Part shown: piece by piece, positions 4,125 to 54,468 of the stretch
Layout of the letters: each line of letters opens with the position of its first letter
Numbering within the stretch: the first letter of the stretch is position 1
From: Sulfurimonas sp.
GTDB lineage: Bacteria; Campylobacterota; Campylobacteria; Campylobacterales; Sulfurimonadaceae
Reading direction: 5' to 3'
DNA: 64,000 nucleotides
Assembly (NCBI RefSeq): GCF_026988655.1
Contig: NZ_JALSKT010000074.1
Location: 20,000 to 83,999, forward strand
Notes under the pieces: model-generated
Database searches by the model: none
Told to the model about the DNA's origin: nothing
What the model saw: the letters and a program-made list of their open reading frames with translations, nothing else
Translations under genes and position numbers: made by a program

Positions 4125-5861
4125 TTGAAAACATTAGTTAATTTTTTAAACGAAAAAGAAGTTGAAAAGTCTGAGATTTTTATACATCTCAAATGTAGCG
4201 TTAATGAAGCGTTAATATTACAGTATATTGCTCAGCGCTATATGAAAGGTCAAGATGATGTTCTTGTACTTGACCTTTTACAAGATTTGTATACGAGTGA
4301 AAATTATGAACATTTGGATCATCTAAAAGAACTCAAAAATTTACTTGAACTTGGTTGGATTCATCAACAAAGTTTTACTCCTATCAAAATATCTGAAGTG
4401 ACTCCACTTGAACTTTTAAATACTGCAGTTGGTTTGACACCGGCTTTTTTGAAGCTTTTGCAAGATGGAACGCTAGATTTAGATTTGCCTGAAATCAAAC
4501 CTTATTCTGATCATCTTGAGTATCTTCAAGATCAATTCTTTAGAATAGAGTTGTATCAAAAAATGAGTGTAATACGTCAAAATGTACATGAACACTCCTT
4601 GGGTATTGATAGACTGCAAAATAAATTGCAACTTCTTGAAAAGCGCATAGAAGAGAGAGTAAGCCAGACTTCTGAGAATCTTGTGCTAGATAAATTTTTC
4701 AAACAAAAAAAGATGAGCAATTATGAACAGGTCATTTTCATCGCATTACTTCGTGAAGAATATGGCTCAACTGATTCATCATTAAGAGAGATGAATACTT
4801 TGATTGATTTGATATCTTTAGATGAATATGAACGTATTAAAAATCGCTCACTTTTAGAAGAAGGCTCCAACCTTTTAAGTAATGGCATCATAGACTATGA
4901 AGAGATGCTCAATCCTTTTGGAGGGATTAGTCGTTCATTTTATATTGTGGATGAGGTACTGCAACGTATCATACACCCACAAAAAACAAAAAAAGTGACA
5001 CGTCTAAAACTCAATGCCTTGGTAGAAGAGCAAGATATCTTTGAGCTAGTAGATAGTGATACTTCTTTAGAAGATGTAGTGCTCAATGAAAAAACAAAAG
5101 AGACACTTGAAAACTTGATGAAGCAGGTTGATAAGCAGGTTGTTTCTCGTTTAGTGAAGTGGGGAATTAAAGATAAAAAGAGTGGTATTGATGCACGCAT
5201 AATTTTTTATGGACCTGCTGGAACTGGAAAAACGATGACGGCGTACTCTTTGGCAAAATCGCTCAAGCGTCAGGTTCTTGCTTTTGACTGTTCTAAGATT
5301 CTTTCTATGTATGTAGGTGAGAGTGAGAAGAATGTGCGCAAAATTTTTGACAGTTTTTATGAACTGAGTGAAAAAACCAAAACGGAACCTATTCTCTTAC
5401 TTAATGAAGCAGACCAATTTTTGGGTGCAAGAAGTAGCGGAAACATTACGGGTTCAGACCAAATGCACAACCAAATGCAAAATATCTTTTTAGAACAGAT
5501 AGAAAACTTTAAAGGGATGCTTATAGCTACGACAAATTTACTTGAAAACATTGATAAAGCATTTTCAAGAAGATTTAACTACAAAATCGAGTTTAAAAAA
5601 CCAGATCAAACGCAGCGACTGGAACTTTGGAAAAAGATGCTTCCCCAAGAAGCACCTTATGAAGAGGGCTTTGATGTAAACAAGCTTGCTGAGTATTCTC
5701 TTACCGGTGGACAAATTAATCTAATAGTGAAAAACACAGCTTACAAGGTTGCAGTAAGAGAAGAACCCCTTTTTAGGGTGAAAGATTTTATAGATGAAAT
5801 CAAACGCGAAAAAGATGCTAATTTTGATAGTGAAAAATCTATGGGGTTTTTAAATAAATAA
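4125..5861 (+). CDS. AAA+ ATPase with about 340-aa uncharacterised N-terminal domain
   Basis: TTG start 6 nt after an AAGGA RBS and 8 nt after the fadL stop. Walker A GPAGTGKT, Walker B LLLNEADQ, and second region of homology ATTNLLENIDKAFSRRF (classical AAA clade). Confidence 0.75.
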   Translation: MKTLVNFLNEKEVEKSEIFIHLKCSVNEALILQYIAQRYMKGQDDVLVLDLLQDLYTSENYEHLDHLKELKNLLELGWIHQQSFTPIKISEVTPLELLNTAVGLTPAFLKLLQDGTLDLDLPEIKPYSDHLEYLQDQFFRIELYQKMSVIRQNVHEHSLGIDRLQNKLQLLEKRIEERVSQTSENLVLDKFFKQKKMSNYEQVIFIALLREEYGSTDSSLREMNTLIDLISLDEYERIKNRSLLEEGSNLLSNGIIDYEEMLNPFGGISRSFYIVDEVLQRIIHPQKTKKVTRLKLNALVEEQDIFELVDSDTSLEDVVLNEKTKETLENLMKQVDKQVVSRLVKWGIKDKKSGIDARIIFYGPAGTGKTMTAYSLAKSLKRQVLAFDCSKILSMYVGESEKNVRKIFDSFYELSEKTKTEPILLLNEADQFLGARSSGNITGSDQMHNQMQNIFLEQIENFKGMLIATTNLLENIDKAFSRRFNYKIEFKKPDQTQRLELWKKMLPQEAPYEEGFDVNKLAEYSLTGGQINLIVKNTAYKVAVREEPLFRVKDFIDEIKREKDANFDSEKSMGFLNK

Positions 5862-6054: not shown

Positions 6055-6444
6055 ATGGAGCATATTAGTACTGCAAATCCGTATTTTGGGGTATTTGTAC
6101 TTTTTGTTATAACATTTGGTGCATTTATTACTACAACTGTAGTAGCGAGATTGGCGAGTCGTGCACTGGCAGCTAAAGATAGTGAAAAAATTAAACTTTC
6201 AGTTTACGAGTGTGGACCTGAAATCACAAAACAACCCAACAGAGTGTCTCCACAGTTTTACCTGTTTGCGCTTTTATTTTTACTTTTTGATGTAGAAATT
6301 GTTTTTATGTTTCCTTGGGCTGTTGATTTTAAAGTTCTAGGCTGGTTTGGTTTTGTTGAGATGATAATGTTTATATTATTGTTAGCAATTGGTTTTGTAT
6401 ATGCATGGAAAAAAGGAGCGCTGGAATGGCACAACATAAAGTAA
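6055..6444 (+). CDS. nuoA: NADH-quinone oxidoreductase subunit A
   Basis: Three TM helices, YECG motif, [12 protein letters not shown]. First gene of the nuo cluster. Confidence 0.9.
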
Positions 6445-6935
6445 ACTATACACAAGATGGTGGATTACCTATAGCACTAACAAGTGTAGATAAGATTGTA
6501 AACTGGGGACGTTCAAATTCACTTTGGGCAATGACATATGGTCTTGCATGTTGTGGTATTGAGATGATGGCTGCAGGTGCTTCAAGATATGACTTTGACC
6601 GTTTTGGGACAATCTTTAGAGCTTCACCACGTCAATCTGATGTAATGATAGTTGCAGGAACACTTACGAAAAAACACTCTGAGTTTATCAAACGTTTGTA
6701 TGATCAAATGACTGAACCTAGATGGGTTATATCTATGGGTTCATGCGCAAATACAGGTGGTATGTTCAATACATATGCAACTGTTCAAGGTGTTGATAGA
6801 ATTATCCCAGTAGATTTATATCTTCCAGGTTGTGCACCACGTCCTGAAACACTTCAGTATGGTGTAATGTTACTACAAAAGAAAATCCGTGCTAATAAAG
6901 CAGGAAATGCACAAAAAGCTAAAAGGTTAATGTAA
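6426..6935 (+). CDS. nuoB: NADH-quinone oxidoreductase subunit B
   Basis: [18 protein letters not shown] and LPGCAPRPE, the N2 cluster ligands. I prefer ATG 6426, 7 nt after AAGGAG, over the track start at 6405. Overlaps the nuoA end. Confidence 0.9.
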
Positions 6936-6937
6936 TT

Positions 6938-7744
6938 ATGAGAGCGTATAAACCTAAAGACGATGTACAAGCAAAAGCTTACTATACAGATAGATTTTAT
7001 GTAGCACCACAAATGCCAAAGAGTTCTGTGGAAGAAGATGAAGTTTTTGCAAGCGATTTAGCTGCTATAAAAGAAAAGTTTGAAGTCAAAGAAGCATATA
7101 TACAAGTAGAACAAATGGTTGTGTATATCAATGCACATGATATTTACGGAGTGCTTGAGCTCATGAGAGATGAGTTGTCATATACACAACTCTCAGAAAT
7201 GTCAGCTATTGACTGGCTAGCAAAAGACAATACATTTGAAATTTTTTACCAAATGCTTTCAATGACAAAACGTAAACGTATTCGTATAAAATACTTTATA
7301 CAAAATGGAGAAGCTGTTGATTCTGTAGAAAAACTTTTCAGAAGTGCTGACTGGAGTGAACGTGAAATGTTCGATATGTTTGGTATTGAAGCAAATAATC
7401 ATCCATTTATGAAAAGAATTCTTATGCCTTATGATTGGCAAGGAAATCCTCTTTTAAAAACGTATCCACTTGAAGGTGATGAGTTTGCTGCATGGTATGA
7501 AGTAGATAAAATCTATGGAAAAGAAGCACGTGACATTATAGGACCTGAACTTCGTGATCCTGCAAAAGTTGATAGATATGATTCAGAGCGTTTTGCACGT
7601 CTTGGACATGAAGTGCCTAAGGGGACTAAAATTACCGGTGATGAACCAGCAGTTACGCAATCATACCAAGAAGAAGGTGGAGTATTCCTCGTCAAAAAAC
7701 TTGATAAAGAGTCATCAGTAATTATTGATGATCCTCAAAGATAA
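6938..7744 (+). CDS. nuoC: NADH-quinone oxidoreductase subunit C
   Basis: 30-kDa subunit motifs (ADWSEREMFDMFGI, HPFMKRILMP). Position between nuoB and nuoD. Confidence 0.9.
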   Translation: MRAYKPKDDVQAKAYYTDRFYVAPQMPKSSVEEDEVFASDLAAIKEKFEVKEAYIQVEQMVVYINAHDIYGVLELMRDELSYTQLSEMSAIDWLAKDNTFEIFYQMLSMTKRKRIRIKYFIQNGEAVDSVEKLFRSADWSEREMFDMFGIEANNHPFMKRILMPYDWQGNPLLKTYPLEGDEFAAWYEVDKIYGKEARDIIGPELRDPAKVDRYDSERFARLGHEVPKGTKITGDEPAVTQSYQEEGGVFLVKKLDKESSVIIDDPQR

Positions 7745-7757
7745 GGTGGTTTAAGAT

Positions 7758-8999
7758 ATGGCACAAGTAAAAAACAGATTAACACCGTTTTTTGAAAATA
7801 TAACATTTGATAGAGATGATAATGAGTTGGTACTGAACTTTGGTCCTCAACATCCATCTGCACATGGTCAACTGCGTTTGATGTTGCATTTACAACAAGA
7901 ACAAATTGTAAAAGCGCATCCTGATGTTGGTTATTTGCATCGTGGTATGGAAAAAATGGCTGAGAACATGATATATAATGAGTTTATGCCAACGACTGAC
8001 CGTATGGATTACATTGCATCATCTTCAAACAATTATGGTTTTGCTCTTGCAGTTGAAAAGCTCATTGGTTTAGAAGTTCCTCGTCGTGCAAAAGTTATAC
8101 GTATGCTCCTTTTAGAGATAAATCGTCTAATGTCTCACCTCTTTTGGCTTGCGACAACAGCGCTTGATATTGGAGCAATGACAGTTTTCCTTTTTGCTTT
8201 CCGTGAAAGAGAATATCTTATGGATATTATTGAGGGGTATTGTGGTGCACGTTTAACGCATGCAGCTATTCGTATTGGTGGAGTACCTCTTGATTTACAA
8301 GACAGTTTTTTACATCAATTAAGAGTATTTTTAAATAAACTGCCTCAAAATATCAAAGATTATGAAGATTTACTTGACTCTAATCGTATTTGGTTAATGA
8401 GAATGGAAGAGGTAGGAACGATCTCTACCGAGATGGCACTTTCATGGGGTTGTACTGGTCCAATGCTTCGTGCTTCAGGTGTGGCTTGGGATATTCGTAA
8501 AGAAGAGCCATATGAGTTGTATGATGAAGTAGAGTTTAATGTACCTTTTTCAGATAAAGGTGATAACTTTGCAAGATACCGTATTTATATGGAAGAGATG
8601 AGAGAGTCTGCTAAGATTCTTTATCAATGTATAGAGATGTATGAAAAATGTGAAAAAGATGGTCAAACTGACTTAATGGCACATGCACCTAAATATATTT
8701 CTGCTCCAAAGATTGACATCATGACACAAAATTACTCTTTGATGCAGCATTTTGTTCTTGTTACACAAGGTATGAGACCACCAGTAGGGGAAGTGTATAT
8801 TCCAACTGAATCACCAAAAGGTGAACTTGGATTCTACATTAACTCACAAGGTGGGCCATATCCATATAGACTAAAACTTCGTGCGCCATCTTTTTGGCAT
8901 ACAGGGATTTTAACTGACCTTTTACCAGGCCACTATATTCCAGATGTTGTATCAATTATAGGTACTACAAATATTGTATTCGGTGAGGTTGACAGATAA
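7758..8999 (+). CDS. nuoD: NADH-quinone oxidoreductase subunit D
   Basis: [20 protein letters not shown], and the C-terminal GEVDR typical of the 49-kDa subunit. Confidence 0.95.
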
Positions 9000-9223
9000 T
9001 GAAACGATATGATTTAAGACATTTAAAAGACAATTTTGAACCTCGTATGAAAGAGATTTTAGAGGAAAAACACAAGCCGACAGAAACTTTGATATTTCTT
9101 TTTGAGATAGGGGATTTTACTCCAATCCAAAGAAGTGCTGATTTAGTAAAAGAGTGTGGGTACGAACTTTATAACTCACTGAAATTCAACGAAGTCGATT
9201 GGACTATCGTTGTCAAAAAATAG
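8999..9223 (+). CDS. Small protein in the NuoE slot (TusA/SirA-like fold suspected, no Fe-S cysteines)
   Basis: ATGA overlap with the nuoD stop. 74 aa with a single Cys. Same position and size class as the roughly 75-aa gene that replaces nuoE in the Campylobacter jejuni nuo operon. The TusA resemblance (YDLRHL..EP...ETLIFL...YEL....IVVKK) is a by-eye alignment. Confidence 0.5.
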   Translation: MKRYDLRHLKDNFEPRMKEILEEKHKPTETLIFLFEIGDFTPIQRSADLVKECGYELYNSLKFNEVDWTIVVKK

Positions 9224-9232
9224 GGATTTGCT

Positions 9233-11269
9233 GTGAGTAAAGTATATTTTTCTACTTGGAATGGTGAGCTTGTTAATAATATAGGTAAACCAAAAGAAGA
9301 GTGGGAAGAGTCAGCATATAATTTGCCAGCACAGTATGATGATCATCGTGACTCAAAGGCTTTCATAGGCTGGGATGGTGTTTCATTGTTTAATGAGGAT
9401 GTGGATGTTATCCGTTTAGCTATGGAATATGCTGCACAGTATCAAGTCTATTCAGAAGCATGTGGAAGATGTGCTCCTGGTAGATGGGGTGGTCGTATTT
9501 TATATGATCAACTTGATAAAATTGCTCGTGGTGAAGGTGAAATAGCTGATTTAGACCATTTGAAAGAGATTGGTAAAAGCATGCAGATTACTTCTAAGTG
9601 CGAGATAGGAAAAACAGTTCCAAATCCTATACTTGACTTGATGAATCACTTTGAAGATACATTTTTAGAGTGTATAAATGAAAAGAAAAAATCAAAACAT
9701 TATGATGATGCTATCGGTTATATTGCTAAGATTACGGCACCATGTACGGATGCTTGTCCTGCACATGTTGATATTCCTGGATATATAGAAGGTGTTAGAG
9801 ATTTACGTTTTGATGATTCATTAGAAGCTACGCGTCAGACGATGCCACTAGCACATACTTGTGGTCGTGTCTGTCCGCATCCATGTGAAGATGCTTGCCG
9901 TAGAACAAATCTTGATGAGCCTATCTCAATTATGGCACTCAAACGTCTTGGTGCAGACTGGGAAGCAAATCACGAATACAACTTTTTTCATCCAATGGAG
10001 AAAAAACCATCAATTGATAAAAAAGTAGCGGTTATAGGTGCAGGACCTGCAGGACTTACTACTGCTTACTATCTTGCAGCTGAAGGTATTGATGTAGATG
10101 TATATGAAGAGCTTCCTGTCCTTGGTGGTGAAGTTGCAGTTGGTGTTCCAGAGTATCGTATGCCAGTTGATAAATACAATCAAGATATCGAATGTGTTAG
10201 AGATATGGGTGTGAATTTTATCACTAATAGTCGTATCTCTGCAGATGATATGAGAAGATTTGAGAAAGAGTATGACGCAACTATGGTAGCCGTTGGAACA
10301 AGAATTTCTAAAAAAGTTCGTTGTGAAAATGAAAGACCAGAGATAAAGGGCTATTGGGGAGCTATTGATTTCCTTGATAAAGTAAATCTTTATGAAAAAT
10401 ATGGATACACAATTTCAAAAGAAGAACAAGAAGAAAACCTACTCACGACTGATTATGTTGACTTGACAGGTAAAACTGTTGTTTGTGTCGGTGGTGGATT
10501 TACTTCAATGGACGTTGTGCGTTGTTCTATTCGTGCAAATGCGAAAAAAGTTTATATGATTTATCGTCGTGATGAAAAAACTATTATTCGTAATACAACT
10601 TATGAAGAGTATCATGAAGCAGTAGAAGAGGGTGTTGAGTTTCTTTTCCATTCTGCTGTGAATAATATTACAACAAATGATGATGATATATTGACTGAGT
10701 TGTTAGTTGATAAATTTGAACTTGTACCTGATCCTGATGGTGGTCGTGCACAACTTGTTAAAATTGAAGGTGCATCATATACGATAGAGGCTGATTATCT
10801 TATTCCAGCTGTTTCTCAATCTGCTGATCTGGACTTACTTCCAGAAGAGTGGGATATAGAGATGACTTCATGGGCTACTATCAAAACAAATGGTAAAGAT
10901 TATATGACATCACGCAAAGGTATTTTTGCTTCTGGTGATTGTGAATATGGTCCAATGACAATTGTAAACGCAGTAGGTCAAGCAAAACGTGCAGCTTCTG
11001 TTATGTCACGCTATGTGCAAACAGGTGAAATAACTTTAACTGATGATGAGATAATGGAAGATCATTTGAGTAAACTTAAAGTTTATGATAAGAAAGAAAA
11101 AGTAACTGGTTGGTTGCCAGGTCTTCCTCGTGAGCACTCTTCTGTACTTGACGCCGAAATACGTAAACATAATAATGCTGAAGTGAATCTAGGATTTACT
11201 CAAGATCAGGCCTTAGCAGAGGCAGATAGATGTATGCGTTGTTACTATATAGCAATGGTACAGGCATAA
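9233..11269 (+). CDS. NuoF-C-terminal-like domain fused to a GltD-type (glutamate synthase small-subunit-like) NAD(P)H flavoprotein
   Basis: GTG start after AGGGA. N-terminal region CGRCAPGRWGG...GEGEIADLDHL...KCEIGK resembles the NuoF N3-cluster helical domain, with the third Cys replaced by Gly. Then CTDACPAHVDIP...CGRVCPHPCEDACRR (2x[4Fe-4S]), VAVIGAGPAGL, GVPEYRMP, VGGGFTSMD, YRR and GIFASGDC, all GltD/NfnB hallmarks. Confidence 0.75.
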   Translation: MSKVYFSTWNGELVNNIGKPKEEWEESAYNLPAQYDDHRDSKAFIGWDGVSLFNEDVDVIRLAMEYAAQYQVYSEACGRCAPGRWGGRILYDQLDKIARGEGEIADLDHLKEIGKSMQITSKCEIGKTVPNPILDLMNHFEDTFLECINEKKKSKHYDDAIGYIAKITAPCTDACPAHVDIPGYIEGVRDLRFDDSLEATRQTMPLAHTCGRVCPHPCEDACRRTNLDEPISIMALKRLGADWEANHEYNFFHPMEKKPSIDKKVAVIGAGPAGLTTAYYLAAEGIDVDVYEELPVLGGEVAVGVPEYRMPVDKYNQDIECVRDMGVNFITNSRISADDMRRFEKEYDATMVAVGTRISKKVRCENERPEIKGYWGAIDFLDKVNLYEKYGYTISKEEQEENLLTTDYVDLTGKTVVCVGGGFTSMDVVRCSIRANAKKVYMIYRRDEKTIIRNTTYEEYHEAVEEGVEFLFHSAVNNITTNDDDILTELLVDKFELVPDPDGGRAQLVKIEGASYTIEADYLIPAVSQSADLDLLPEEWDIEMTSWATIKTNGKDYMTSRKGIFASGDCEYGPMTIVNAVGQAKRAASVMSRYVQTGEITLTDDEIMEDHLSKLKVYDKKEKVTGWLPGLPREHSSVLDAEIRKHNNAEVNLGFTQDQALAEADRCMRCYYIAMVQA

Positions 11270-11280
11270 GGAGGTCGTGA

Positions 11281-13524
11281 ATGAGTAAAATTATTAATTT
11301 TAAAATTGACGGTAAAGATGTTCAAGCAAAAAAAGGTGAAACAATCCTTCAAGTTGCTAGAAAAAATGATCTTTACATACCTACTATGTGTTATATCTCC
11401 AAGACAACGCCTTGTGCGTCTTGTCGTATCTGTTCTGTTGAAGTAGAAGGTGTTGATGGTTTTATACTTTCTTGTAACACACCACCTACTGAGGGCATAG
11501 AAGTAAAAATAAATTCAGATAAGCTTGAAGTCGAAAGAACCAATATCATGAAACTTTATGATGTCAATCATCCATTAGAATGTGGAGTTTGTGATAAGTC
11601 AGGCGAGTGTGATTTGCAAAATATGACATTAGAATTTAATGTAGGAAATCAAAATTTTTCAGCGAAAGATCAACTACGAAAAGTAGAAGATTGGGGGTTG
11701 ATAAATTATGATCCTGCATTATGTATTATGTGTGAAAAATGTGTTCATGTTTGTAATGAAGTTATTGGTGATGATGCCATCGATGTTAAGTTTGGTGGTT
11801 ACTCTTCTGTAATTATTCCAAAAAATTCCCAAACACTTGACTGTACATACTGTGGCGAATGTATCGCAGTTTGTCCTGTTGGAGCACTTGTGAGCAGTGA
11901 TTTTAAATACACTGCGAATGCATGGGAATTATCCCGTGTTCCATCAACTTGTGCACACTGTTCTGCGGGATGTTCATTAGAGTATGAAACTCGTCATTTT
12001 GGTATAAATGGTGAAGACAACATCTACAGAGTGAAAAATAATTTTGAATACAATTCACTTTGTGGAGCAGGACGATTTGGTTTTGATTTTGAAAATCGAG
12101 CAAAAAAAGATGCTACTGCGTTTGAAGGGGCTTTAGAAGCTTTAAAAAATGCAAATGCTATTCGTTTTACTTCAATAATAACGAATGAAGAAGTACTGAT
12201 TTTGCAAAAGTTAAAAGAGAAGCTCGGAATTAAACTTTATAACGAAGATGCACGTTTGTATGCTGACTTTATGAAAGCATATAGTTCTGTAAGTGGAAAG
12301 TTGCATCATAGTGCTTCAATGGATGCAATAAAACAAGCAGATGCAGTGGTAATTATCGGAACAAGAATAGCAACAGATAATCCTATGGTTAGATATGCAA
12401 TCAGAACGGCTTCTCAGCATAATGGCGCAAAAGTAATTTATGCACATCCTTTAGAAGATGCGTTGATGAAAAATACTGCTACACAATTCATCAAATATGA
12501 AGTAGGAACTGAAGAGGGTGTAATAGCTCTCTTAGCAAATGAGTTACTTAAAAATGCTGATATTGATGAAGATGCAAAAGCATTTTTAGAAGAGTTAGAT
12601 TTAGGTTATCTTGAAGCTGAGAGTAATGTAGGCGATGATGAAATCAAGCAAATGAGTAAATCATTTAGTAGAACTCAAAATCATGTATTAGTTCTTGGTA
12701 GTGATTTGTTTGCACATGCCCGTGCAAAAAATATTGCAAAACTAGCAGCTTTAATTGAAAAATATACAAATTTTTCTTTATTGATTGTTCCAAATGAAGT
12801 TAACACTGCTGGTGTATCACTTATCTGTGAACTAGATGTTGATGAGGAGACAGAAAATGTTGTTGGATATAATGCAGATGGTGACTTTGTACTCTCTTCA
12901 TTAGAAGAAGCAGATTTAGCTATGCCAGCACTGAATCAAGTTGAAGGAACAATCGTTAATGTTGATAACAAAGTGTTACCGCTGAATGTAGCCCTAGCAT
13001 TTGATGGTTATCTTCTTAATGATTTAGCAAAGGCTTTTGACATAGATAAAGAGTACACAGTTGAATATACGAGTGAGTTACCAAGTGATAAAGGCTTTAA
13101 AAATATTGCTTTTGATTCGCTAGAGAATTTCTACTCACCACATGGGGATGATATAAGAGGGTATCTTTTAGATGAAGTCTCTTGTGTAGTTGAGGCGGTG
13201 ATTGAACCTGTCGCAGATTTGCCAGAGTTTAATGGTACGGTTGTATATAATTGTAACCCTGTTTTACAATTCAATAAATTTACTAATAAAACAAAACAAC
13301 TTGAAAAAGATACAGTATTAAGAGGTTCAGCACAGTTTGCTGCTGCAGCAAAAATAAATGATGGTGACGAGATAGAAATAATTTCTCAAAACAGAACAAT
13401 TAAAAGAAAATTTAAACTAGATGATGAGCTTAAAGGAACAGTGGCACTCAACCCTGTTTTTGATATAGGTCAAGAGTCAAGTTTATATAGATTTCAAAAA
13501 TCCAAAATAGTGAGAGTAATATAA
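11281..13524 (+). CDS. NuoG-like Fe-S subunit, paralog 1 (747 aa)
   Basis: 2Fe-2S ferredoxin N-terminus, HPLECGVCDKSGECDLQ, CIMCEKCVHVC, CTYCGECIAVCPVGAL and CAHCSAGC, followed by a molybdopterin-oxidoreductase-like body. Confidence 0.8.
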   Translation: MSKIINFKIDGKDVQAKKGETILQVARKNDLYIPTMCYISKTTPCASCRICSVEVEGVDGFILSCNTPPTEGIEVKINSDKLEVERTNIMKLYDVNHPLECGVCDKSGECDLQNMTLEFNVGNQNFSAKDQLRKVEDWGLINYDPALCIMCEKCVHVCNEVIGDDAIDVKFGGYSSVIIPKNSQTLDCTYCGECIAVCPVGALVSSDFKYTANAWELSRVPSTCAHCSAGCSLEYETRHFGINGEDNIYRVKNNFEYNSLCGAGRFGFDFENRAKKDATAFEGALEALKNANAIRFTSIITNEEVLILQKLKEKLGIKLYNEDARLYADFMKAYSSVSGKLHHSASMDAIKQADAVVIIGTRIATDNPMVRYAIRTASQHNGAKVIYAHPLEDALMKNTATQFIKYEVGTEEGVIALLANELLKNADIDEDAKAFLEELDLGYLEAESNVGDDEIKQMSKSFSRTQNHVLVLGSDLFAHARAKNIAKLAALIEKYTNFSLLIVPNEVNTAGVSLICELDVDEETENVVGYNADGDFVLSSLEEADLAMPALNQVEGTIVNVDNKVLPLNVALAFDGYLLNDLAKAFDIDKEYTVEYTSELPSDKGFKNIAFDSLENFYSPHGDDIRGYLLDEVSCVVEAVIEPVADLPEFNGTVVYNCNPVLQFNKFTNKTKQLEKDTVLRGSAQFAAAAKINDGDEIEIISQNRTIKRKFKLDDELKGTVALNPVFDIGQESSLYRFQKSKIVRVI

Positions 13525-16010
13525 TGAGTAAGATTACTATAAATATTGATGGTAAAGAGATTCAAACGCAAGAGGGTGCATATATACTAAATGCAGCTCG
13601 TGCTAATGATATTTTTATTCCTGCAATATGTTATTTGACAAGATGTAGCCCCACACTAGCTTGTAGAATTTGTCTTGTAGAAGCAGATGGAAAACAAGTC
13701 TATGCATGTAATGCAAAAGCTAAAGATGGTATGAACATTACAACTTCCACTGAGACAATCGAAAAAGAACGTCGTGCAATAATGGAAGTATATGATGTAA
13801 ACCATCCTCTACAATGTGGTGTTTGTGATCAATCAGGCGAGTGTGAGCTACAAAACTATACACTTGAGATAGGTGTAGATTCACAAAGCTATTCTGTAAA
13901 AGATGTAGATAGAAGCTCTCATGACTGGGGTCATTTACATTATGATCCGGGTCTTTGTATAGTTTGTGAGCGTTGTGTTACTGCTTGTAAAGATATGATT
14001 GGTGATAATTCACTCAAAACTATAGCACGTGGTGCTGACCCTTTAAATGCTGATTATAAAGCAGAAATGCCTAAAGATGCATATGCCATGTGGAATAAAC
14101 TAAACAAGTCAGTCATTGGTCTTACAAATGGAACTGATGTACTTGATTGTACTTCTTGTGGTGAATGTGCTGCTGTTTGTCCAGTTGGTGCGCTTGTTGA
14201 TACACAGTTTATGTACAAGTCTAATGCATGGGAGCTTAAACAAGTTCCAGCAACTTGTGGACATTGTTCTGCAGGTTGTCAAATCACATATGATATAAAG
14301 CATGCAAGTATAGATAATCCTGAAGATAAGATATACCGTGTTATGAACGAATGGAACTATGTTTCACTTTGTGGTGCTGGTCGTTATGGGTTTGACTATC
14401 AAAATGCTACTGCGACAAAAGATGAAGCTGCGTTTGAAAAAGCAATTGAGGCATTCAAGAAAGCTGACACTATTGCGTTTACTTCAACTATTACAAATGA
14501 AGAAGCTTATTTACTTCAAAAAATGAAAGAAAAATTTGGTTATAAACTTGTGAATAATGAAGCAAAAGCTTTTCAAACGTTTTTAGCTAATTATAGTGAG
14601 ATAAGTGGTACAAAACTTTATAGTAGTGATTTGGAAAAAGTACATAATTCTAATTTTGTAGTTTCAATTGGATCTGCTTTAAAAACGGACAATCCTAATG
14701 CAAGATATGCGCTTAATAATTCAATGACGGTAAATAAAGGTGCTGGATTATATTTCCATCCACTTAAAGATCCTATCATTGAAGGTTTAGGTAAGTCTAT
14801 AATGACAGTAAATCATGCTCCATTGCAAGAAGAAGTAGCGCTGTACCTTATCTTAGACCTCTTTGGGGATAAAACAAAATTACCATCAACTATAGTAGAA
14901 TATTTAGCTTCGTTTCATTCTCAAAAAACGATTACTATCCAAGAGACAGTAAAAGAAAAAGTGATTGAAATCGTTCAAGAAGTTAAAGTGAATGAAGAAA
15001 CTGGCGAAGAAGAAGAGATTGAAGTTGAAAAATCGAAGATGGTTTCTAAAAAAGTAGCTAAAGATGTTGAAGTAGATGACAACAAACTCTTAGAAATTCT
15101 TAGTGCTGATGCTAAATTTATGGAAGTATTAGAGAAGAATCTAAAGAAAAAGACTACTTTTGAATTGATGGTAGGTCCTGATTTATATACACATCCAAAT
15201 GCTAAAAATATTGCACGTTTAGTGGCTTTGGTTGAAAAATACTCTGCTTTTTCTGTAACAATGATCCCAACGCTTACTAACTCTCTTGGAGTGGCACTTC
15301 TATGTGAACTTGATGATGAAAAAGGTGCATATACTGTAGCTTATAATACAGATGGAGATTATGTGCTTTCTGGTTTAGGAGATGGTGATTTAGATATGCC
15401 AGCTATAAATCAGCAAGAAGGAACATTAACATCTATAAATAAACGTGTAAACCCAACAAATGCTGCTGTAGTTTATAATGGTTATGAACTTAATGATATT
15501 GCAAATGCACTTGGTCTTGAAGCTGAAAATGTTATAGATTATACTGTTGAACTGCCAATATCTGTTGGATTCAAATCAGAAGAATTTGATAATTTACCAA
15601 ATCATTACGAAAATGATGGAACAGAAGTTCGCGGATATGTGTTAGAAAATGTAGCAGTTGATGTAAGTGATGATGAAAGTGTTGATAAATTCAGTGAAGA
15701 TAAGCTTGAAGGTAGTATAATTTATCTAGCTAATCCTGTAAGACAATTTACAGAGTTTACAAACAAAACAAGCAACCTTGATGAAGTAAGTGGTATTTAT
15801 ATGAGTGAAGAGTTCTTATCTAAATCAGACTTTAATGAGGGTGATACTGTAAAAGTAAAAACTACAAATGGTGAGCTTACTGCAAATGTAGTAAGTGATA
15901 ATAAAATTACAGGTGATATTGTAGTTTTACCAACATTTGACAAAAAACTAAACTCAGAAGCATTATTTGAGGCATATCGCTTTAATTCTGCTTCGATACA
16001 AAAGGTGTAA
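13524..16010 (+). CDS. nuoG: NADH-quinone oxidoreductase subunit G (828 aa, epsilonproteobacterial size class)
   Basis: Same cluster motifs as paralog 1 (HPLQCGVCDQSGECELQ, CIVCERCVTAC, CTSCGECAAVCPVGAL, CGHCSAGC). ATAATG overlap with paralog 1. Sits directly upstream of nuoH. Confidence 0.85.
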   Translation: MSKITINIDGKEIQTQEGAYILNAARANDIFIPAICYLTRCSPTLACRICLVEADGKQVYACNAKAKDGMNITTSTETIEKERRAIMEVYDVNHPLQCGVCDQSGECELQNYTLEIGVDSQSYSVKDVDRSSHDWGHLHYDPGLCIVCERCVTACKDMIGDNSLKTIARGADPLNADYKAEMPKDAYAMWNKLNKSVIGLTNGTDVLDCTSCGECAAVCPVGALVDTQFMYKSNAWELKQVPATCGHCSAGCQITYDIKHASIDNPEDKIYRVMNEWNYVSLCGAGRYGFDYQNATATKDEAAFEKAIEAFKKADTIAFTSTITNEEAYLLQKMKEKFGYKLVNNEAKAFQTFLANYSEISGTKLYSSDLEKVHNSNFVVSIGSALKTDNPNARYALNNSMTVNKGAGLYFHPLKDPIIEGLGKSIMTVNHAPLQEEVALYLILDLFGDKTKLPSTIVEYLASFHSQKTITIQETVKEKVIEIVQEVKVNEETGEEEEIEVEKSKMVSKKVAKDVEVDDNKLLEILSADAKFMEVLEKNLKKKTTFELMVGPDLYTHPNAKNIARLVALVEKYSAFSVTMIPTLTNSLGVALLCELDDEKGAYTVAYNTDGDYVLSGLGDGDLDMPAINQQEGTLTSINKRVNPTNAAVVYNGYELNDIANALGLEAENVIDYTVELPISVGFKSEEFDNLPNHYENDGTEVRGYVLENVAVDVSDDESVDKFSEDKLEGSIIYLANPVRQFTEFTNKTSNLDEVSGIYMSEEFLSKSDFNEGDTVKVKTTNGELTANVVSDNKITGDIVVLPTFDKKLNSEALFEAYRFNSASIQKV

Positions 16011-16013
16011 TAT

Positions 16014-17003
16014 ATGGATACAGCATATTTAATTGAGACGATAATCAAAGTCGTTGTAATCTTACTTATATTTTCTGCGTTAGCAGGTATTGGTACATAT
16101 TTCGAGCGTAAAGTGCTTGCATTTATGCAACGTCGTTTGGGGCCGATGTATGTTGGACCATATGGACTATTGCAAGTTGCAGCAGATGGTGTAAAGCTTT
16201 TTACAAAAGAGGATATCATCCCTACAAATGTAGTAGCTCTTATATTTAAAATAGCTCCTGTAATTACAGCAGCTACTGCGTTTATGGCAGCTGCTGCAAT
16301 TCCATTCTTTCCAGAATTTACAGTGTTTGGATATACAGTTCATCCTATTGTTGCAGATTTAAATATTGGTATATTATATATTTTAGGTGTAATGGCAGTT
16401 GGTTTGTATGGACCATTACTTGGAGGTATGGCATCTGCGAATAAATTTGCACTACTTTCAGCTGCTCGTACAGCAGCAGTATTTATATCATATGAAGTTG
16501 TAAGTGGTTTGTCTATTTTAGCTCCAATTATGATGGTTGGTTCATTGTCACTTATTGATTTTAATGAATATCAAGCAGGTGGTATCAGTGACTGGATAAT
16601 ATGGTCACAACCTCTTGCATTTATATTGTTTTGGATTGCTGCGTTTGCTGAAACAGGACGTACTCCTTTTCACTTGATAGCGAATGATCATGAAATTATT
16701 GATGGTTTTGGTACTGAGTATTCTGGTATGAGATGGGGTCTATTCTTCATTGGTGAATATGCAAATATGTTTTTTATCTCTTTTGTAATACCACTTATCT
16801 TTTTAGGTGGATTTGGTGATGGAACTATTTTTGGGGCACTTGGATTATTAGGTAAAGTCGCATTTTTCTTTTTCTTCTTTTTGTGGACTAGAGCAGCTTG
16901 GCCAGATGTGAGACCAGATCAACTTATGTGGTTGTGTTGGAAAGTTTTAATGCCATTAGCCGTGATTAATGTTGTAATCACTGGTTTAGTGATGATGTTT
17001 TAA
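16014..17003 (+). CDS. nuoH: NADH-quinone oxidoreductase subunit H
   Basis: Polytopic membrane protein with ERKVLAFMQRRLGP, the PF(H)L..AE.E loop (AETGRTPFHL) and EYSGMRW. Confidence 0.95.
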   Translation: MDTAYLIETIIKVVVILLIFSALAGIGTYFERKVLAFMQRRLGPMYVGPYGLLQVAADGVKLFTKEDIIPTNVVALIFKIAPVITAATAFMAAAAIPFFPEFTVFGYTVHPIVADLNIGILYILGVMAVGLYGPLLGGMASANKFALLSAARTAAVFISYEVVSGLSILAPIMMVGSLSLIDFNEYQAGGISDWIIWSQPLAFILFWIAAFAETGRTPFHLIANDHEIIDGFGTEYSGMRWGLFFIGEYANMFFISFVIPLIFLGGFGDGTIFGALGLLGKVAFFFFFFLWTRAAWPDVRPDQLMWLCWKVLMPLAVINVVITGLVMMF

Positions 17004-17014
17004 GGGGATAATGA

Positions 17015-17632
17015 ATGAAAATGGAAGCATTTAATGATAGAAATGTAGCTGATAATGGCTACTTTTTAGTTGATATTGAAGATTATCCTACTGATGGTTG
17101 GGGTAAGTTTAAGCGTGTAGTTAGAAGAAGTTTTAAGGGTGAGCTATTTGTTGGTCTTTGGGTTGTACTTCGTGAGATGATTAAGTTTGATATTCACACA
17201 GTACAATATCCTGAAGAAAAAATGCCTATAGGTCCTCGTTATCGTGCAGTGCATGAGATGAAACGACTTTGGGAATCTGATGCTGAGAGATGTATCGGTT
17301 GTGGTTTATGTGAAAAGATTTGTATTTCAGATTGTATTCGTATGGATACTAAAATTGATGAAAACTCTCGTAAAGAAGTAACAGAATATACAATTAACTT
17401 AGGTCGTTGTATTTTTTGTGGTTATTGTGCAGAGGTTTGCCCAGAGTTGGCAATTACACATGGTGGAGAGTATGAGCAAGCTTCAGAACAAAGAGAACAC
17501 TTTGTAGATTACGAATATATGCTTACACCTATAGATACCATGAAGGCTAAAGCTCAAAAAGAGTTTGAAGGTTTCGGTGCTATTACACCACATGAAGACG
17601 AGCGTGTTAAAAAAACACCTCTAGCATATTAA
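17015..17632 (+). CDS. nuoI: NADH-quinone oxidoreductase subunit I
   Basis: Two CxxCxxCxxxCP ferredoxin motifs (CIGCGLCEKIC, CIFCGYCAEVCP). Confidence 0.9.
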   Translation: MKMEAFNDRNVADNGYFLVDIEDYPTDGWGKFKRVVRRSFKGELFVGLWVVLREMIKFDIHTVQYPEEKMPIGPRYRAVHEMKRLWESDAERCIGCGLCEKICISDCIRMDTKIDENSRKEVTEYTINLGRCIFCGYCAEVCPELAITHGGEYEQASEQREHFVDYEYMLTPIDTMKAKAQKEFEGFGAITPHEDERVKKTPLAY

Positions 17633-17644
17633 GGAGTTTAGACT

Positions 17645-18211
17645 ATGTTTGAAGCGATAGCGTTTTACTTGTTTGCATTTTTGACTATTACGATGTTTTT
17701 CATTACAGTGACTACATCACAAGCATTATATGCATTAACTGCCTTAGCAGCAGGAATGATTTTTATATCAGCATTTTTCTTTATTTTGGGTGCTGATTTT
17801 TTAGGTGCGGTTCAGATAATCGTATATACAGGTGCTGTTATGGCTCTTTATGCTTTTGGTATGATGTTTTTTGATACAACTCGTGAAGTGAAAGAGAAGC
17901 AGGGGAATAAATATATTATTATAGGGCTTTCAACTTTAGCAGCTATTTTAGTTGTAGTGATTTTTGCTACACCTATGGTTTCTGAAAATATAGTGGCACT
18001 TTACCCAGCTATAGAAGGTGTTGGTAACACTCAAGAAGTTGGTTTAGTTTTATTTACGAAGTATTTAGTTCCCTTTGAAGTTGCTGCGATTATGTTGCTT
18101 GTTGCAATGGTAGCTGGAATTGTACTTGCCGGTAAAAAAATGGACCTTTCAATCACGCTTATGAATGATGAAGATCTTGAAAAAGAAAAAAATAAAAAGG
18201 TGCTTTCATGA
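17645..18211 (+). CDS. nuoJ: NADH-quinone oxidoreductase subunit J
   Basis: Five-TM hydrophobic protein at the nuoJ position, with VQIIVYTGAVM. Confidence 0.85.
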   Translation: MFEAIAFYLFAFLTITMFFITVTTSQALYALTALAAGMIFISAFFFILGADFLGAVQIIVYTGAVMALYAFGMMFFDTTREVKEKQGNKYIIIGLSTLAAILVVVIFATPMVSENIVALYPAIEGVGNTQEVGLVLFTKYLVPFEVAAIMLLVAMVAGIVLAGKKMDLSITLMNDEDLEKEKNKKVLS

Positions 18212-18516
18212 TGGAAATTGGTTTAAACCATTATTTAGTTTTATCTACTATTTTATTTGCTATTGGTTTAGTAGGTGTTATGCGTAGAAAAAATCTTCTT
18301 TTGCTATTTTTTGCGACAGAAATATTACTAAACTCTGTAAATGTAGCATTTGCTGCTATCTCACACTATTATGGTGATTTAACAGGGCAAATGTTTGCAT
18401 TTTTTGTCATTGCTATTGCCGCTTCTGAAGTTGCAGTTGGTCTTGGGCTTCTTATTGTGTGGTTCAAACGTCATGGTTCTATTGATTTAGATTCATTAAG
18501 TTCGATGAAAGGATAA
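18208..18516 (+). CDS. nuoK: NADH-quinone oxidoreductase subunit K
   Basis: About 100 aa, three TM helices, conserved E residues (ATEILLNS, AASEVAVGL). ATGATG overlap with nuoJ. Confidence 0.9.
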   Translation: MMEIGLNHYLVLSTILFAIGLVGVMRRKNLLLLFFATEILLNSVNVAFAAISHYYGDLTGQMFAFFVIAIAASEVAVGLGLLIVWFKRHGSIDLDSLSSMKG

Positions 18517-18519
18517 AGA

Positions 18520-20439
18520 ATGGAAAAATATTTATATATAGCATTATTTGCTCCGCTTGTCAGTTCTTTGTTCTCAGCACTATTTACTGCAACACCAAAG
18601 AAGATGTTCACAGGTATAGTTGCAAGTTTATTAATCTTTAGTTCTTTAGTAAGTAGTTTTGTACTTCTAATGTATATTTTAGATGGTGGTGAACCTGTAC
18701 ATGTTGAAATGATGACATGGATGGCAACAGGGCATTTATATATTCCTTTTGGATTTATAGTTGATCAAGTATCAGTTACTATGATGATGGTTGTTACTTT
18801 GGTTTCAACTATCGTGCATATATACTCTATAGGTTACATGGATCACGATAAGGGATTCAATAGATTTTTCTCTTGGTTGTCAGCATTTGTATTTTCAATG
18901 ATGGTACTTGTAATGAGTGATAACTATGCTGGACTATTTATAGGATGGGAAGGTGTTGGTTTATGTTCATGGGGTCTTATTGGTTTTTGGTTTCATAAAG
19001 AGGTCGCAACTTGGGCAGCTAATGAAGCTTTCATTATGAACCGTATAGCTGACCTTGGTATGCTTATTGGTATTTTCTTAGTATATTGGAATACTGGTAC
19101 ATTACAATATGATGGTGCTTTTGCTGCGTTTAGTACTCTTGATACAGCTACATTAACTTGGATTGGTATATTTTTATTTATCGGTGCTATGGGTAAATCA
19201 GCACAGTTTCCATTACATACATGGCTTGCTGATGCGATGGAAGGTCCTACTCCGGTATCTGCATTGATTCACGCGGCAACAATGGTTACTGCAGGGGTGT
19301 ATCTTGTGGTACGTTCTGGTGAGCTTTATGATTTAATTCCAAACGTTGGTCTCTTTATCGCTAGTCTTGGTGCTTTTGTTGCTTTATTCGCAGCATCAAT
19401 GGCACTTGTTAACCGTGATATGAAAAGAATCATTGCGTACTCTACGCTTTCACAGTTAGGTTATATGTTTGCTGCTGCAGGTTTAGGTGCTTATTGGGTA
19501 GCATTGTTTCACCTTATGGCACACGCATTTTTCAAGGCATTACTATTCTTAGGTGCAGGTAATGTAATGCATGCTATGCATGATGAGTTAGATCCATTTA
19601 AAATGGGTGGATTGAAAAAAGTAATGAGATGGACTTGGATTATGATGACTATTGCTTCTTTAGCATTAGCGGGTATCTTTCCATTTGCAGGTTTCTTTTC
19701 AAAAGATACTATCTTAGAAGCTGCGTTTGCAGAACATCACTTTGTTATTTATGGTGTACTTCTTTTTACTGCAGGTTTAACAGCGTTTTATTCATTTAGA
19801 CTTGTTGCTTTAATCTTTCATGGTGAAGAGAGATATAAAATATTTGGTATTCATCCACATGAAGCGTATAGATTTATGCTTATAGCTATGAGTCCATTAT
19901 TGATTCTTGCTATGATTGCCGGGGTATTTCAAGTACCATTCTTTGAAATGGTTGAGGAAATTTTAAATGCCCATGAGTATCATATACATTCACATACTAC
20001 ATTGTTGATTATGTTGGTTGGTACACAAGTATTTGTTGCTTTAGCTATTCTTTATGCATATAAAAAATATGCATCATGGAGCAGTGTTCCAGATGGAACA
20101 AGTGCAATTGAAAACTCATTTGTTTATAAATTATTATATAACCAATACTACATCCCATATTTTTATGAAGAATACATTGTAAAATCATATAAAGAAATGT
20201 CAGAGGTATTCTGGACGAAAGTTGATATGAAAATTGTGGATGCAACAGTTGATGGTATCGCTGGTATTATATATGGAACTGGTGAAAAAACAAGAGATAT
20301 GCAAAGTGGTAACTTATCTACTATGCTAAAATGGATGGTAGCCGGTTTAGTTGGTTTATTGTCATTGGCTGTAGTTTTTGGACTTGCAGCAAGATATTCT
20401 GATGAGATATTATCTATCTTATCAGCCCTAGGAGTTTAG
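18520..20439 (+). CDS. nuoL: NADH-quinone oxidoreductase subunit L
   Basis: Antiporter-like subunit (WEGVGLCSW, GKSAQFPLHTWLADAMEGPTPVSALIHAATMV) with a long C-terminal lateral-helix extension. Confidence 0.95.
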   Translation: MEKYLYIALFAPLVSSLFSALFTATPKKMFTGIVASLLIFSSLVSSFVLLMYILDGGEPVHVEMMTWMATGHLYIPFGFIVDQVSVTMMMVVTLVSTIVHIYSIGYMDHDKGFNRFFSWLSAFVFSMMVLVMSDNYAGLFIGWEGVGLCSWGLIGFWFHKEVATWAANEAFIMNRIADLGMLIGIFLVYWNTGTLQYDGAFAAFSTLDTATLTWIGIFLFIGAMGKSAQFPLHTWLADAMEGPTPVSALIHAATMVTAGVYLVVRSGELYDLIPNVGLFIASLGAFVALFAASMALVNRDMKRIIAYSTLSQLGYMFAAAGLGAYWVALFHLMAHAFFKALLFLGAGNVMHAMHDELDPFKMGGLKKVMRWTWIMMTIASLALAGIFPFAGFFSKDTILEAAFAEHHFVIYGVLLFTAGLTAFYSFRLVALIFHGEERYKIFGIHPHEAYRFMLIAMSPLLILAMIAGVFQVPFFEMVEEILNAHEYHIHSHTTLLIMLVGTQVFVALAILYAYKKYASWSSVPDGTSAIENSFVYKLLYNQYYIPYFYEEYIVKSYKEMSEVFWTKVDMKIVDATVDGIAGIIYGTGEKTRDMQSGNLSTMLKWMVAGLVGLLSLAVVFGLAARYSDEILSILSALGV

Positions 20440-20442
20440 TAG

Positions 20443-26010: not shown

Positions 26011-26442
26011 ATGCAAAGAAATATGAGAAGAGGTTTCACTTTAATTGAACTAATGATTGTTATCGTGATTCTTGGTCTTTTGGCTGCAATGGTTATGCCA
26101 AGTCTTACAGGAAAAGGTGAAGAAGCGAAGCGCAACCTTGTATGTGTACAGATGAAAAGTATTTATGATGGTGCCCTAGATATGTTTAAAATAAACAATA
26201 GCGTATATCCTTCAACGAGTGAAGGGCTTGAAGCACTTGTTAAAAATCCAGATCCTGATAAATATCCAAACTATGCTACAAGTGGGTACTTTAAAGATAA
26301 TAAACTTCCAAAAGATTCTTGGGGCAGTCCATTTATATATATTAATGATGAAGGACATGTTGAACTTATCTCTTTAGGTGCTGATAGAAAAGAAGGCGGT
26401 AAAGATGAAAGTGCAGATATTAAGATGAGTGAGTGTAAATAG
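26011..26442 (+). CDS. gspG: Type II secretion major pseudopilin GspG
   Basis: Prepilin leader MQRNMRRG/FTLIELMIVIVILGLLAA and the GspG C-terminal signature DSWGSPFIY...SLGADRKEGG..ADI. Confidence 0.9.
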   Translation: MQRNMRRGFTLIELMIVIVILGLLAAMVMPSLTGKGEEAKRNLVCVQMKSIYDGALDMFKINNSVYPSTSEGLEALVKNPDPDKYPNYATSGYFKDNKLPKDSWGSPFIYINDEGHVELISLGADRKEGGKDESADIKMSECK

Positions 26443-26445
26443 ATA

Positions 26446-28175: not shown

Positions 28176-28177
28176 TA

Positions 28178-33548: not shown

Positions 33549-33549
33549 G

Positions 33550-54405: not shown

Positions 54406-54468
54406 GACAATCCCCTTTTTCACAAAAATCACTGCACACCCAAGCAGGGCTCAGTAGCAAAGTGCAGT

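Follow-up and report, generated by a model that had tools for sequence, protein, structure and literature searches.

What does a complex I that lacks NuoE and NuoF exchange electrons with? The question is raised by a nuo operon of Sulfurimonas sp. (GCF_026988655.1, contig NZ_JALSKT010000074.1), which lies in the 64,000-nt stretch of DNA analyzed here (the window). In this operon, a 74-aa protein (NuoX) fills the NuoE slot, a 678-aa flavoprotein (F678) fills the NuoF slot, and two NuoG paralogs (G1 and G2) follow in tandem. More widely, the locus bears on how Campylobacterota that use the reductive tricarboxylic acid (rTCA) cycle obtain NADPH and low-potential ferredoxin from the electrons of sulfur or thiosulfate. 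We propose, with a probability of about 0.5, that the locus encodes a complex I with an NADP(H)-linked input/output module, which would be run in reverse in this autotroph. The operon is composed as follows.

6055-6444, plus strand: nuoA (nuoA-D together match the Pfam set Oxidored_q4, Oxidored_q6, Complex1_30kDa and Complex1_49kDa with E 1e-27 to 1e-105)
6405-6935, plus strand: nuoB, canonical (same Pfam set)
6938-7744, plus strand: nuoC, canonical (same Pfam set)
7758-8999, plus strand: nuoD, canonical (same Pfam set)
8999-9223, plus strand: nuoX, 74 aa, in the NuoE slot (PF16514; PDB 2LXR_A)
9233-11269, plus strand: F678, 678-aa flavoprotein in the NuoF slot, ortholog of Suden_1824 (Pfam, ortholog alignment)
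11281-13524, plus strand: G1, extra NuoG paralog of 747 aa, ortholog of Suden_1823 (Pfam, NCBIfam PRK08493)
13524-16010, plus strand: G2, canonical epsilonproteobacterial NuoG of 828 aa (PRK08493 over its full length, 1171 bits)
16014-23510, plus strand: nuoH, I, J, K, L, M and N (Pfam NADHdh, Fer4, Oxidored_q3, Oxidored_q2, Proton_antipo_M)

A preliminary description of this DNA had placed the open reading frames of NuoX (74 aa, one Cys) and F678 exactly where they are found, and had called nuoA-D and nuoG-N canonical. Pfam bears this out for nuoA-D and nuoH-N, but "nuoG" is two tandem paralogs, a duplication that had been missed. Its claim that NuoE and NuoF are missing agrees with Pfam, by which neither domain is found in the operon or in the 23 further open reading frames of the window. 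The genes of the operon overlap by 1 nt or are spaced by 3-11 nt. The nuoD stop overlaps the nuoX start by 1 nt, as does the G1 stop the G2 start, and spacers of 9 and 11 nt separate nuoX from F678 and F678 from G1. This packing of nuoD-nuoX-F678-G1-G2 suggests translational coupling, which counts in favor of the complex I reading. The F678 gene starts with GTG, a GGGA motif of Shine-Dalgarno type precedes the start, and the N-termini of the orthologs are conserved from residue 3. A promoter and terminator scan of the locus gave signals at or near chance level.

What F678 may do is indicated by its two parts, whose features are given here.

9233-9727, plus strand: F678 residues 1-165, NuoF/HydB-type remnant with the end of an SLBB domain and a four-helix bundle with an N3/B1-type cluster site (structure alignments)
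9461-9481, plus strand: motif C77-G-R-C80-A-P-G83, aligned to C-G-K-C-x-P-C of HydB, NfnB and NuoF
9734-9973, plus strand: F678 residues 168-247, Fer4_20 domain with six of the eight [4Fe-4S] Cys (Pfam, E 1.8e-23)
10019-10984, plus strand: F678 residues 263-584, flavin adenine dinucleotide (FAD)- and NADP(H)-binding domains (Pyr_redox_2, E 1.3e-25)
11153-11266, plus strand: F678 residues 641-678, C-terminal helix in which C667-x-x-C670 are the last two [4Fe-4S] ligands (alignment to NfnB)

The larger part, residues 168-671, is a complete module for NADPH, FAD, and two [4Fe-4S] clusters. It has eight Cys for the clusters (171, 175, 210, 214, 218, 222, 667, and 670), the glycine motifs GAGPAG (269-274) and GGGFTS (420-425), and a Y444-R445-R446 motif that aligns to Y310-R311-R312 of Thermotoga maritima NfnB. 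The latter residues are named as the site of the NADPH 2'-phosphate in a 2019 bioRxiv preprint (10.1101/717884). All eight Cys, both glycine motifs, and the YRR motif are invariant in the F678 of the window and 62 full-length orthologs. F678 therefore has the hallmarks of the GltD/NfnB (NfnL-like) family, that is, a Fer4_20 domain, eight cluster ligands, GxGxxG, and a Y-R-R pocket. By homology, F678 is predicted to be an NADP(H)-dependent FAD enzyme whose electrons are wired through two [4Fe-4S] clusters. Its best named matches are from Sulfurimonas species, with 84-89% identity.

The closest solved relatives of this module are NfnA/StnC of the Bfu-type transhydrogenases (9bov_A, E 2e-82; 8oh5_C, E 1e-70; 9n5u_A, E 9e-70). 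F678 residues 169-671 are colinear with residues 102-567 of 9bov_A, and the order is the same in 8oh5_C and 9n5u_A. T. maritima NfnB (4ylf_B) is matched with E 5e-71. The RCxxC helix of F678 (residues 641-670) aligns to the N-terminus of NfnB (residues 13-42), so the module is circularly permuted relative to NfnB and GltD, and the helix follows the NADPH domain as in the Bfu type. The preliminary description of a full GltD/NfnB-type module thus holds for the FAD site, the NAD(P)H site, and the two clusters, but not for the order of the parts, which is that of NfnA/StnC rather than of NfnB or GltD proper. The large subunit of NfnSL and GltD (4ylf_B, 5jca_L, 6s6s_G) share with F678 the fold family, the FAD/NADPH motifs, YRR, and two [4Fe-4S] clusters. 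F678 differs from them in the first cluster-binding helix, which has moved to its C-terminus, in the extra NuoF-derived N-terminal domain, and in having no NfnS or GltB partner gene. The small FNR-like partner of NfnSL, with a [2Fe-2S] cluster and a second FAD, is not found between nuoA and nuoN. The small subunit of glutamate synthase and AegA/YgfK-type enzymes were considered for F678 and rejected, as it falls far below every NCBIfam equivalog cut-off and the gene context is wrong.

The smaller, N-terminal part is of NuoF/HydB type. Pfam NADH_4Fe-4S matches residues 73-145 (E 2e-19), which, with the Fer4_20 and Pyr_redox_2 matches, accounts for all three domains that the preliminary description had named for a check. 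Complex1_51K, the domain for flavin mononucleotide (FMN) and NADH, gives no match on F678 at E <= 0.01. The alignment to NuoF and HydB sets in no earlier than the end of the SLBB domain, and residues 26-160 correspond to the C-terminal NuoF-type part with the last SLBB strands and the four-helix bundle. The best matches are residues 439-563 of HydB (8a6t_B, E 2e-18) and residues 407-540 of the NfnB of an NfnABC enzyme (9n5u_B, E 5e-17), and the matches to complex I NuoF are weaker (E 5e-11 to 1e-8). F678 therefore resembles the canonical NuoE/NuoF N-module in operon position and in its four-helix bundle with the NADH_4Fe-4S domain, but there is no Complex1_51K, no thioredoxin-like 2Fe-2S NuoE, and a Gly in place of the third N3 Cys.

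This last difference defines the site. The Gly (G83) occupies the position of the third N3/B1 ligand and C123 aligns to the fourth, which leaves three Cys at the N3/B1-type site. Instead of the C-x2-C-x2-C...C of canonical NuoF, F678 has C77-x2-C80-x2-G83...C123, and the earlier statement that its N-terminus is a C-terminal NuoF remnant without the third Cys is borne out. C77, C80, G83, C123, and C147 are invariant in all 63 sequences (the window F678 and its 62 full-length orthologs). CGRC(A/T)PG is also present in all five relatives at 65-85% identity that cover the motif, and the metagenomic relatives at 65-74% identity keep CGRC(A/T)PGRWG, so the C-x2-C-x2-G...C pattern is fixed even at that distance. 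Moreover, no domain of F678 is more conserved than the NuoF-derived bundle, which has a mean identity of 89% in the 63 sequences. Together, this conservation and the fixed three-Cys pattern argue for function and not decay, and the reading of a decaying, pseudogene-like NuoF remnant was rejected because the conservation of F678 is highest there. Judged from these alignments, the three-Cys site is an old, selected feature. C147 (window 9671-9673), which stands where B subunits have a conserved His, could serve as a replacement ligand there.

The closest solved relatives of both F678 halves thus belong to one enzyme type, the Bfu-type NfnABC/StnABC (9bov, 8oh5, 9n5u). The likeness lies in the permuted NfnL-like domain, with E 2e-82 to 9e-70, in a bundle of four helices like that of the B subunit, with E 5e-17 to 4e-14, and in a NuoG-like partner. 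However, the NfnL-like domain follows the bundle in F678, whereas it is inserted in the NuoG-like subunit in Bfu enzymes. F678 also lacks the FMN/NAD-binding Rossmann domain, no NuoE-like C subunit is encoded at the locus, and the F678 gene is embedded in a nuo operon. These differences matter for a model of McNichol and Sievert, in which the proton-motive force drives the simultaneous reduction of NADP+ and ferredoxin in fixed stoichiometry and electrons are split at F678 or a NuoG copy. F678 is homologous to the bifurcating T. maritima NfnB, and in NfnSL the GltD-like FAD bifurcates. The rTCA cycle needs both reductants, and NuoX and the C-terminal part of G1 are common to a flavodoxin-linked enzyme (see below). 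However, F678 is closer to NfnA/StnC, with which it shares the permuted topology, and in Bfu enzymes the FAD of the GltD-like part merely takes in electrons from NADPH, while the split occurs at FMN-B1-C1. The Bfu flavobicluster comprises the B subunit with FMN and a NuoE-like C subunit (PMC11829005). As F678 contains only the four-helix bundle of the B subunit and no C subunit is encoded, the flavobicluster bifurcation site cannot exist here. No NfnS-like partner gene is found at the locus either. With a module of the NfnA type, which does not bifurcate, and no possibility of an FMN-B1-C1 site, we regard bifurcation as unlikely.

Which subunit would receive F678? Both NuoG paralogs keep every Cys needed for one [2Fe-2S] and four [4Fe-4S] sites, and the complete set of G1 counts in favor of G1 as an electron wire. 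The best PDB match of G1 is Aquifex NuoG (7q5y_A, E 2.6e-53). A survey anchored on NuoX covered 80 Sulfurimonadaceae genome loci and 40 metagenome loci. The genome loci are the best 80 of at least 590 matches and all belong to the Sulfurimonadaceae, so the genome counts describe this family and not the phylum. F678 is present in 71 of the 78 assessable genome loci. G1 is full length wherever it can be assessed beside F678 (59/59), whereas in the loci without F678 it is either at most 500 aa long (32 loci) or missing (4 loci), without exception (36/36). Every truncation takes away the N-terminal FeS domains of G1 and leaves its C-terminal part in place. For example, the remnants of loci L028, L064, and L065 have about 310 aa and start near G1 residue 325. 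In contrast to G1, G2 is present in all 95 loci that reach its position. F678 and the FeS domains of G1 are perfectly co-lost, which makes G1 the predicted partner of F678.

One clade, in which NuoD and NuoH are 95-97.5% identical, shows all four states. L014 carries F678 and a full G1. L010 carries a 495-aa G1 without the FeS N-terminus (10237-11724), which matches G1 residues 216-746. L065 retains a 308-aa remnant (10235-11161), and in L016 only a 157-bp spacer is left between nuoX and nuoG (10229-10385). Four states within so close a clade imply that at least some losses are recent. The survey also bears on the bifurcation model, as relatives without F678 keep NuoX, the G1 remnant, and G2, which suggests that a ferredoxin/flavodoxin function would be independent of F678.

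The remaining slot protein, NuoX, links the locus to the complex I of Campylobacter jejuni and Helicobacter pylori. NuoX is a full-length member of PF16514 (NADH-UOR_E; residues 1-74 of 74, E 1.5e-39). It matches over residues 1-74 the nuclear magnetic resonance structure of H. pylori HP1264, deposited as "NADH dehydrogenase I subunit E" (2LXR_A, E 5e-22). Its single Cys, C53, is not conserved in the family alignment, which agrees with the earlier statement that the protein cannot bind a cluster, and the thioredoxin-like fold with four Cys and a [2Fe-2S] cluster that defines canonical NuoE is absent. The protein is 100% identical to one from Sulfurimonas indica NW8N, and the S. denitrificans match has 85% identity (P0217). 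The small NuoX/HP1264 family comprises 59 clusters at 50% identity among 1.8 billion representatives and takes in Helicobacter and the Campylobacteraceae. In all 118 assessable related loci, some of which begin within or after nuoD, the gene order agrees with nuoX directly following nuoD, and none has a gene inserted between the two or a different order. Many NuoX homologs have long C-terminal tails rich in Ala, Glu, and Lys, for a total length of about 105-252 aa (P0243, P0247, P0242, P0244; L081:6194-6511). In a group of Campylobacteraceae metagenome-assembled genomes, NuoX is fused to a NuoY-like G1 remnant in one protein of 349-352 aa (P0275, P0305-P0314).

The slot after NuoX, that of NuoY, is likewise shared. 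In the C. jejuni and H. pylori enzymes, it is filled by Cj1574c and HP1265, next to the NuoX proteins Cj1575c and HP1264. The protein at the HP1265 position (L083:6201-7220, in a locus reached through the metagenome scan that carries HP1264 at 100% identity) shows homology to residues 340-513 of G1. In a search with a nominal database size of one million, it matches 58 G1 proteins of full length, with E values as low as 5e-13, and never G2. The comparison rests on H. pylori HP1265, with Cj1574c of C. jejuni outside it. A search with a NuoY-like query reached the following slot proteins, though not C. jejuni itself.

L081:8001-9347: Sulfurovum slot protein, a G1 remnant of 448 aa
L082:8001-8843: Sulfurospirillum slot protein of 280 aa, named "epsilonproteobacterial nuoF-like protein"
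Campylobacteraceae metagenome-assembled genomes: slot proteins of about 270 aa, homologs of the C-terminal half of G1

The slot proteins that follow NuoX are thus homologous to the C-terminal half of G1 and not to canonical NuoG, and in a rough neighbor-joining tree, G1, its remnants, and the slot proteins form one clade apart from canonical NuoG. By these alignments, HP1265 is a G1 remnant and a relative of the extra NuoG, a homology that was not found stated in the literature searched. The two complex I types therefore have in common the NuoX family, the absence of NuoE and NuoF, a long NuoG (PRK08493), and a NuoY equivalent, here the C-terminal half of G1. The preliminary description overstated the contrast with the C. 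jejuni-type replacement; the locus is a fuller version of that complex I rather than a solution unrelated to it. It differs in a full-length G1 with a complete FeS N-terminus and in the added NADPH-type flavoprotein, a module that argues for a donor other than that of the flavodoxin-only type. In Sulfurovum sp. TSL6, a 338-aa flavoprotein (Pyr_redox_2, two dinucleotide-binding domains) is encoded on the minus strand between nuoX and the 448-aa G1 remnant (L081:6687-7703), which is the place of F678 in Sulfurimonas. An attempt to place this protein with ferredoxin-NADP+ reductase, thioredoxin reductase, or YpdA led to no assignment.

F678 and G1 might instead form a separate soluble oxidoreductase that is merely co-transcribed with the nuo genes, either an NADPH:ferredoxin/flavodoxin enzyme or a degenerate beta-alpha pair like that of an NADP+-dependent formate dehydrogenase. 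In the Moorella type of the latter, the beta subunit ("fdhB") has a C-terminal NuoF part joined to a GltD-like module and pairs with a NuoG-like alpha subunit. JGI labels many F678 homologs "formate dehydrogenase (NADP+) beta subunit", F678 and G1 come close to the cofactor set of a free-standing NfnA plus B1 bundle, and the two are lost as a unit. However, the alpha subunit of such a dehydrogenase has a catalytic domain with Mo/W-bis-pyranopterin guanine dinucleotide, and G1 contains no convincing counterpart. Its Pfam Molybdopterin match is weak (E 6e-7), Molydop_binding gives no match, and the alignment to formate dehydrogenase alpha structures is confined to the N-terminal FeS part (residues 5-273). 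Formate dehydrogenase was rejected on these grounds. Against a separate enzyme of any kind, both genes lie inside the operon between nuoX and nuoG and overlap their neighbors or nearly do so. Furthermore, the C-terminal half of G1 usually stays in its slot after F678 is lost, and it persists in H. pylori, whose enzyme needs the slot proteins. A separate enzyme is accordingly very improbable.

How would an NADP(H)-linked complex I work? In solved NfnABC, the NfnL-like domain is the NADPH entry, and the four-helix bundle of NfnB contacts the N-terminal domain of NfnA. Because this bundle packs on a NuoG-like [2Fe-2S] domain, we infer that the F678 remnant is an adaptor. In complex I, the contact between N3 of NuoF and N1b of NuoG is established. 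F678 would bind NADP(H), in place of NADH, at its FAD, and electrons would go on through the two [4Fe-4S] clusters. The NuoF-derived bundle, which may hold a cluster at its three-Cys site, would plug onto a NuoG-type subunit at its N-terminal [2Fe-2S] domain, with G1 as the predicted docking partner. The FeS chain of G1 would pass electrons to G2 and then to NuoI, NuoB, and quinone, so that F678 and G1 would both be associated with complex I. NuoX and the C-terminal half of G1 would form a scaffold that is also found in the flavodoxin-dependent complex I of C. jejuni and H. pylori. As these parts are shared with that enzyme, the ferredoxin/flavodoxin site is probably kept, and ferredoxin or flavodoxin may be reduced at this second site. 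In reverse flow, the proton-motive force would push electrons from menaquinol to NADP+, and possibly to ferredoxin, for carbon fixation.

The direction of flow is a separate matter, as both alternatives of the preliminary description, NAD(P)H input and reverse, quinol-driven production of NADPH and ferredoxin, are viable at this locus and agree with earlier proposals for S. denitrificans. The enzyme could run forward as a respiratory, proton-pumping NADPH:quinone oxidoreductase, with NADPH supplied, for example, by a hydrogenase or isocitrate dehydrogenase. The sequence evidence for an NADP(H) module serves this possibility equally, complex I is reversible, and the related C. jejuni enzyme runs forward with flavodoxin. 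However, the genus is chemolithoautotrophic, and its donors feed the quinone pool, so that NADPH is a needed product and not a fuel. This counter-argument rests on lifestyle, and both directions may coexist. Forward NADPH oxidation is nevertheless distinctly unlikely as the main role. For a sulfur/hydrogen-oxidizing rTCA chemolithoautotroph, and with no other known route to ferredoxin or NADPH in S. denitrificans (10.1101/717884), the reverse is most likely the physiological direction.

Several points weigh against an NADP(H)-linked complex I run in reverse. We infer the reverse direction purely from lifestyle. Close relatives have lost F678 more than once (L010, L016, L019, L028, L064, L065, and L079), and it is absent from Sulfurovum sp. 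TSL6, so some members of these genera can do without it. The occupant of the three-Cys site might be a [3Fe-4S] cluster or a [4Fe-4S] cluster that takes a ligand other than Cys, or the site might be empty, in which case the electron wire must run elsewhere. An AlphaFold2 model of F678, built on an alignment of 26 sequences at >=84% identity, was too poor for geometry (predicted local distance difference test score 52.8, predicted template modeling score 0.43) and was not used. The absence of nuoEF covers the window, with the rest of the genome outside view. Finally, no evidence from biochemistry or structures for the binding of F678 or G1 to complex I was found in the literature searched.

The arrangement was known before. 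In S. denitrificans, whose complex I is orthologous gene for gene, Suden_1824 was described as a substitute for NuoF with 33% identity to NfnB, and Suden_1823 and Suden_1822 as two NuoG copies, both expressed by transcript evidence (10.1101/717884). According to the same preprint, Weerakoon and Olson (2008) had noticed the arrangement earlier, and it is universal in Sulfurimonas and Sulfurovum. The preprint also proposed for S. denitrificans that electrons are transported in reverse, to NAD(P)H and ferredoxin. The role proposed here is the same, and there is no difference in kind between the two loci. Since both the arrangement and the reverse-transport idea are already published, the finding is real but not new. 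No later experimental work on the arrangement was found in the literature searched. In the passages covered here, the 2019 preprint compares Suden_1824 with T. maritima NfnB only and mentions neither the NuoF-derived domain nor the three-Cys site nor the Bfu topology. The present analysis adds the NuoF/HydB-derived putative adaptor with its fixed three-Cys site, the Bfu-type topology, the co-variation of F678 and G1, the homology of HP1265-type slot proteins to G1, and exceptions to the claimed universality in seven Sulfurimonadaceae loci and in Sulfurovum sp. TSL6.

Upstream of nuoA and on the same strand, the window encodes an AAA+ ATPase that contains a winged-helix domain and is about 578 aa long (4125-5861). 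It adjoins nuoA directly here and in Sulfurospirillum (L082:2955-4688), and in Sulfurovum (L081:1-1251) two genes lie between them. This conserved neighborhood could reflect an assembly or regulatory link. Further along, a type II secretion/type IV pilus-like cluster occupies 26011-35476 (T2SSF, GspD-like secretin, T2SSE ATPase), with several open reading frames that have no Pfam match. A 1241-aa open reading frame on the minus strand (50707-54432) has no Pfam match at E <= 1e-5. Also on the minus strand, a hybrid histidine kinase with a NIT domain adjoins an Hpt-domain protein (58232-61441 and 61444-63063). NIT domains sense nitrate and nitrite, and the pair may be a nitrate-responsive phosphorelay in this denitrifying lineage.

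Campylobacterota with the rTCA cycle dominate dark sulfidic habitats, and the nuo operon with F678 and G1 is the leading candidate for their route to NADPH and ferredoxin. If the proposal is true, the enzyme would be the first of its kind, a complex I whose input/output module is NADPH-specific and based on FAD. Experimental handles are at hand in the conserved three-Cys docking domain, the predicted partner G1, and the natural loss variants, among which L014, L010, L065, and L016 are near-isogenic and usable for tests of function. A bolder and tentative extension, which we hold to be possible rather than probable, is that the ancestral Campylobacterales complex I carried an NADP(H) module of F678 and a full-length second NuoG, built from Bfu/NfnABC-like parts. 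The enzyme of C. jejuni and H. pylori would then be a reduced descendant, with NuoY as a vestige of the second NuoG, and in Sulfurimonas, one machine driven by the proton-motive force would feed both NADPH and reduced ferredoxin or flavodoxin to the rTCA cycle. The link between HP1265 and a NuoG paralog also bears on how the flavodoxin-dependent enzyme is built in the pathogens.

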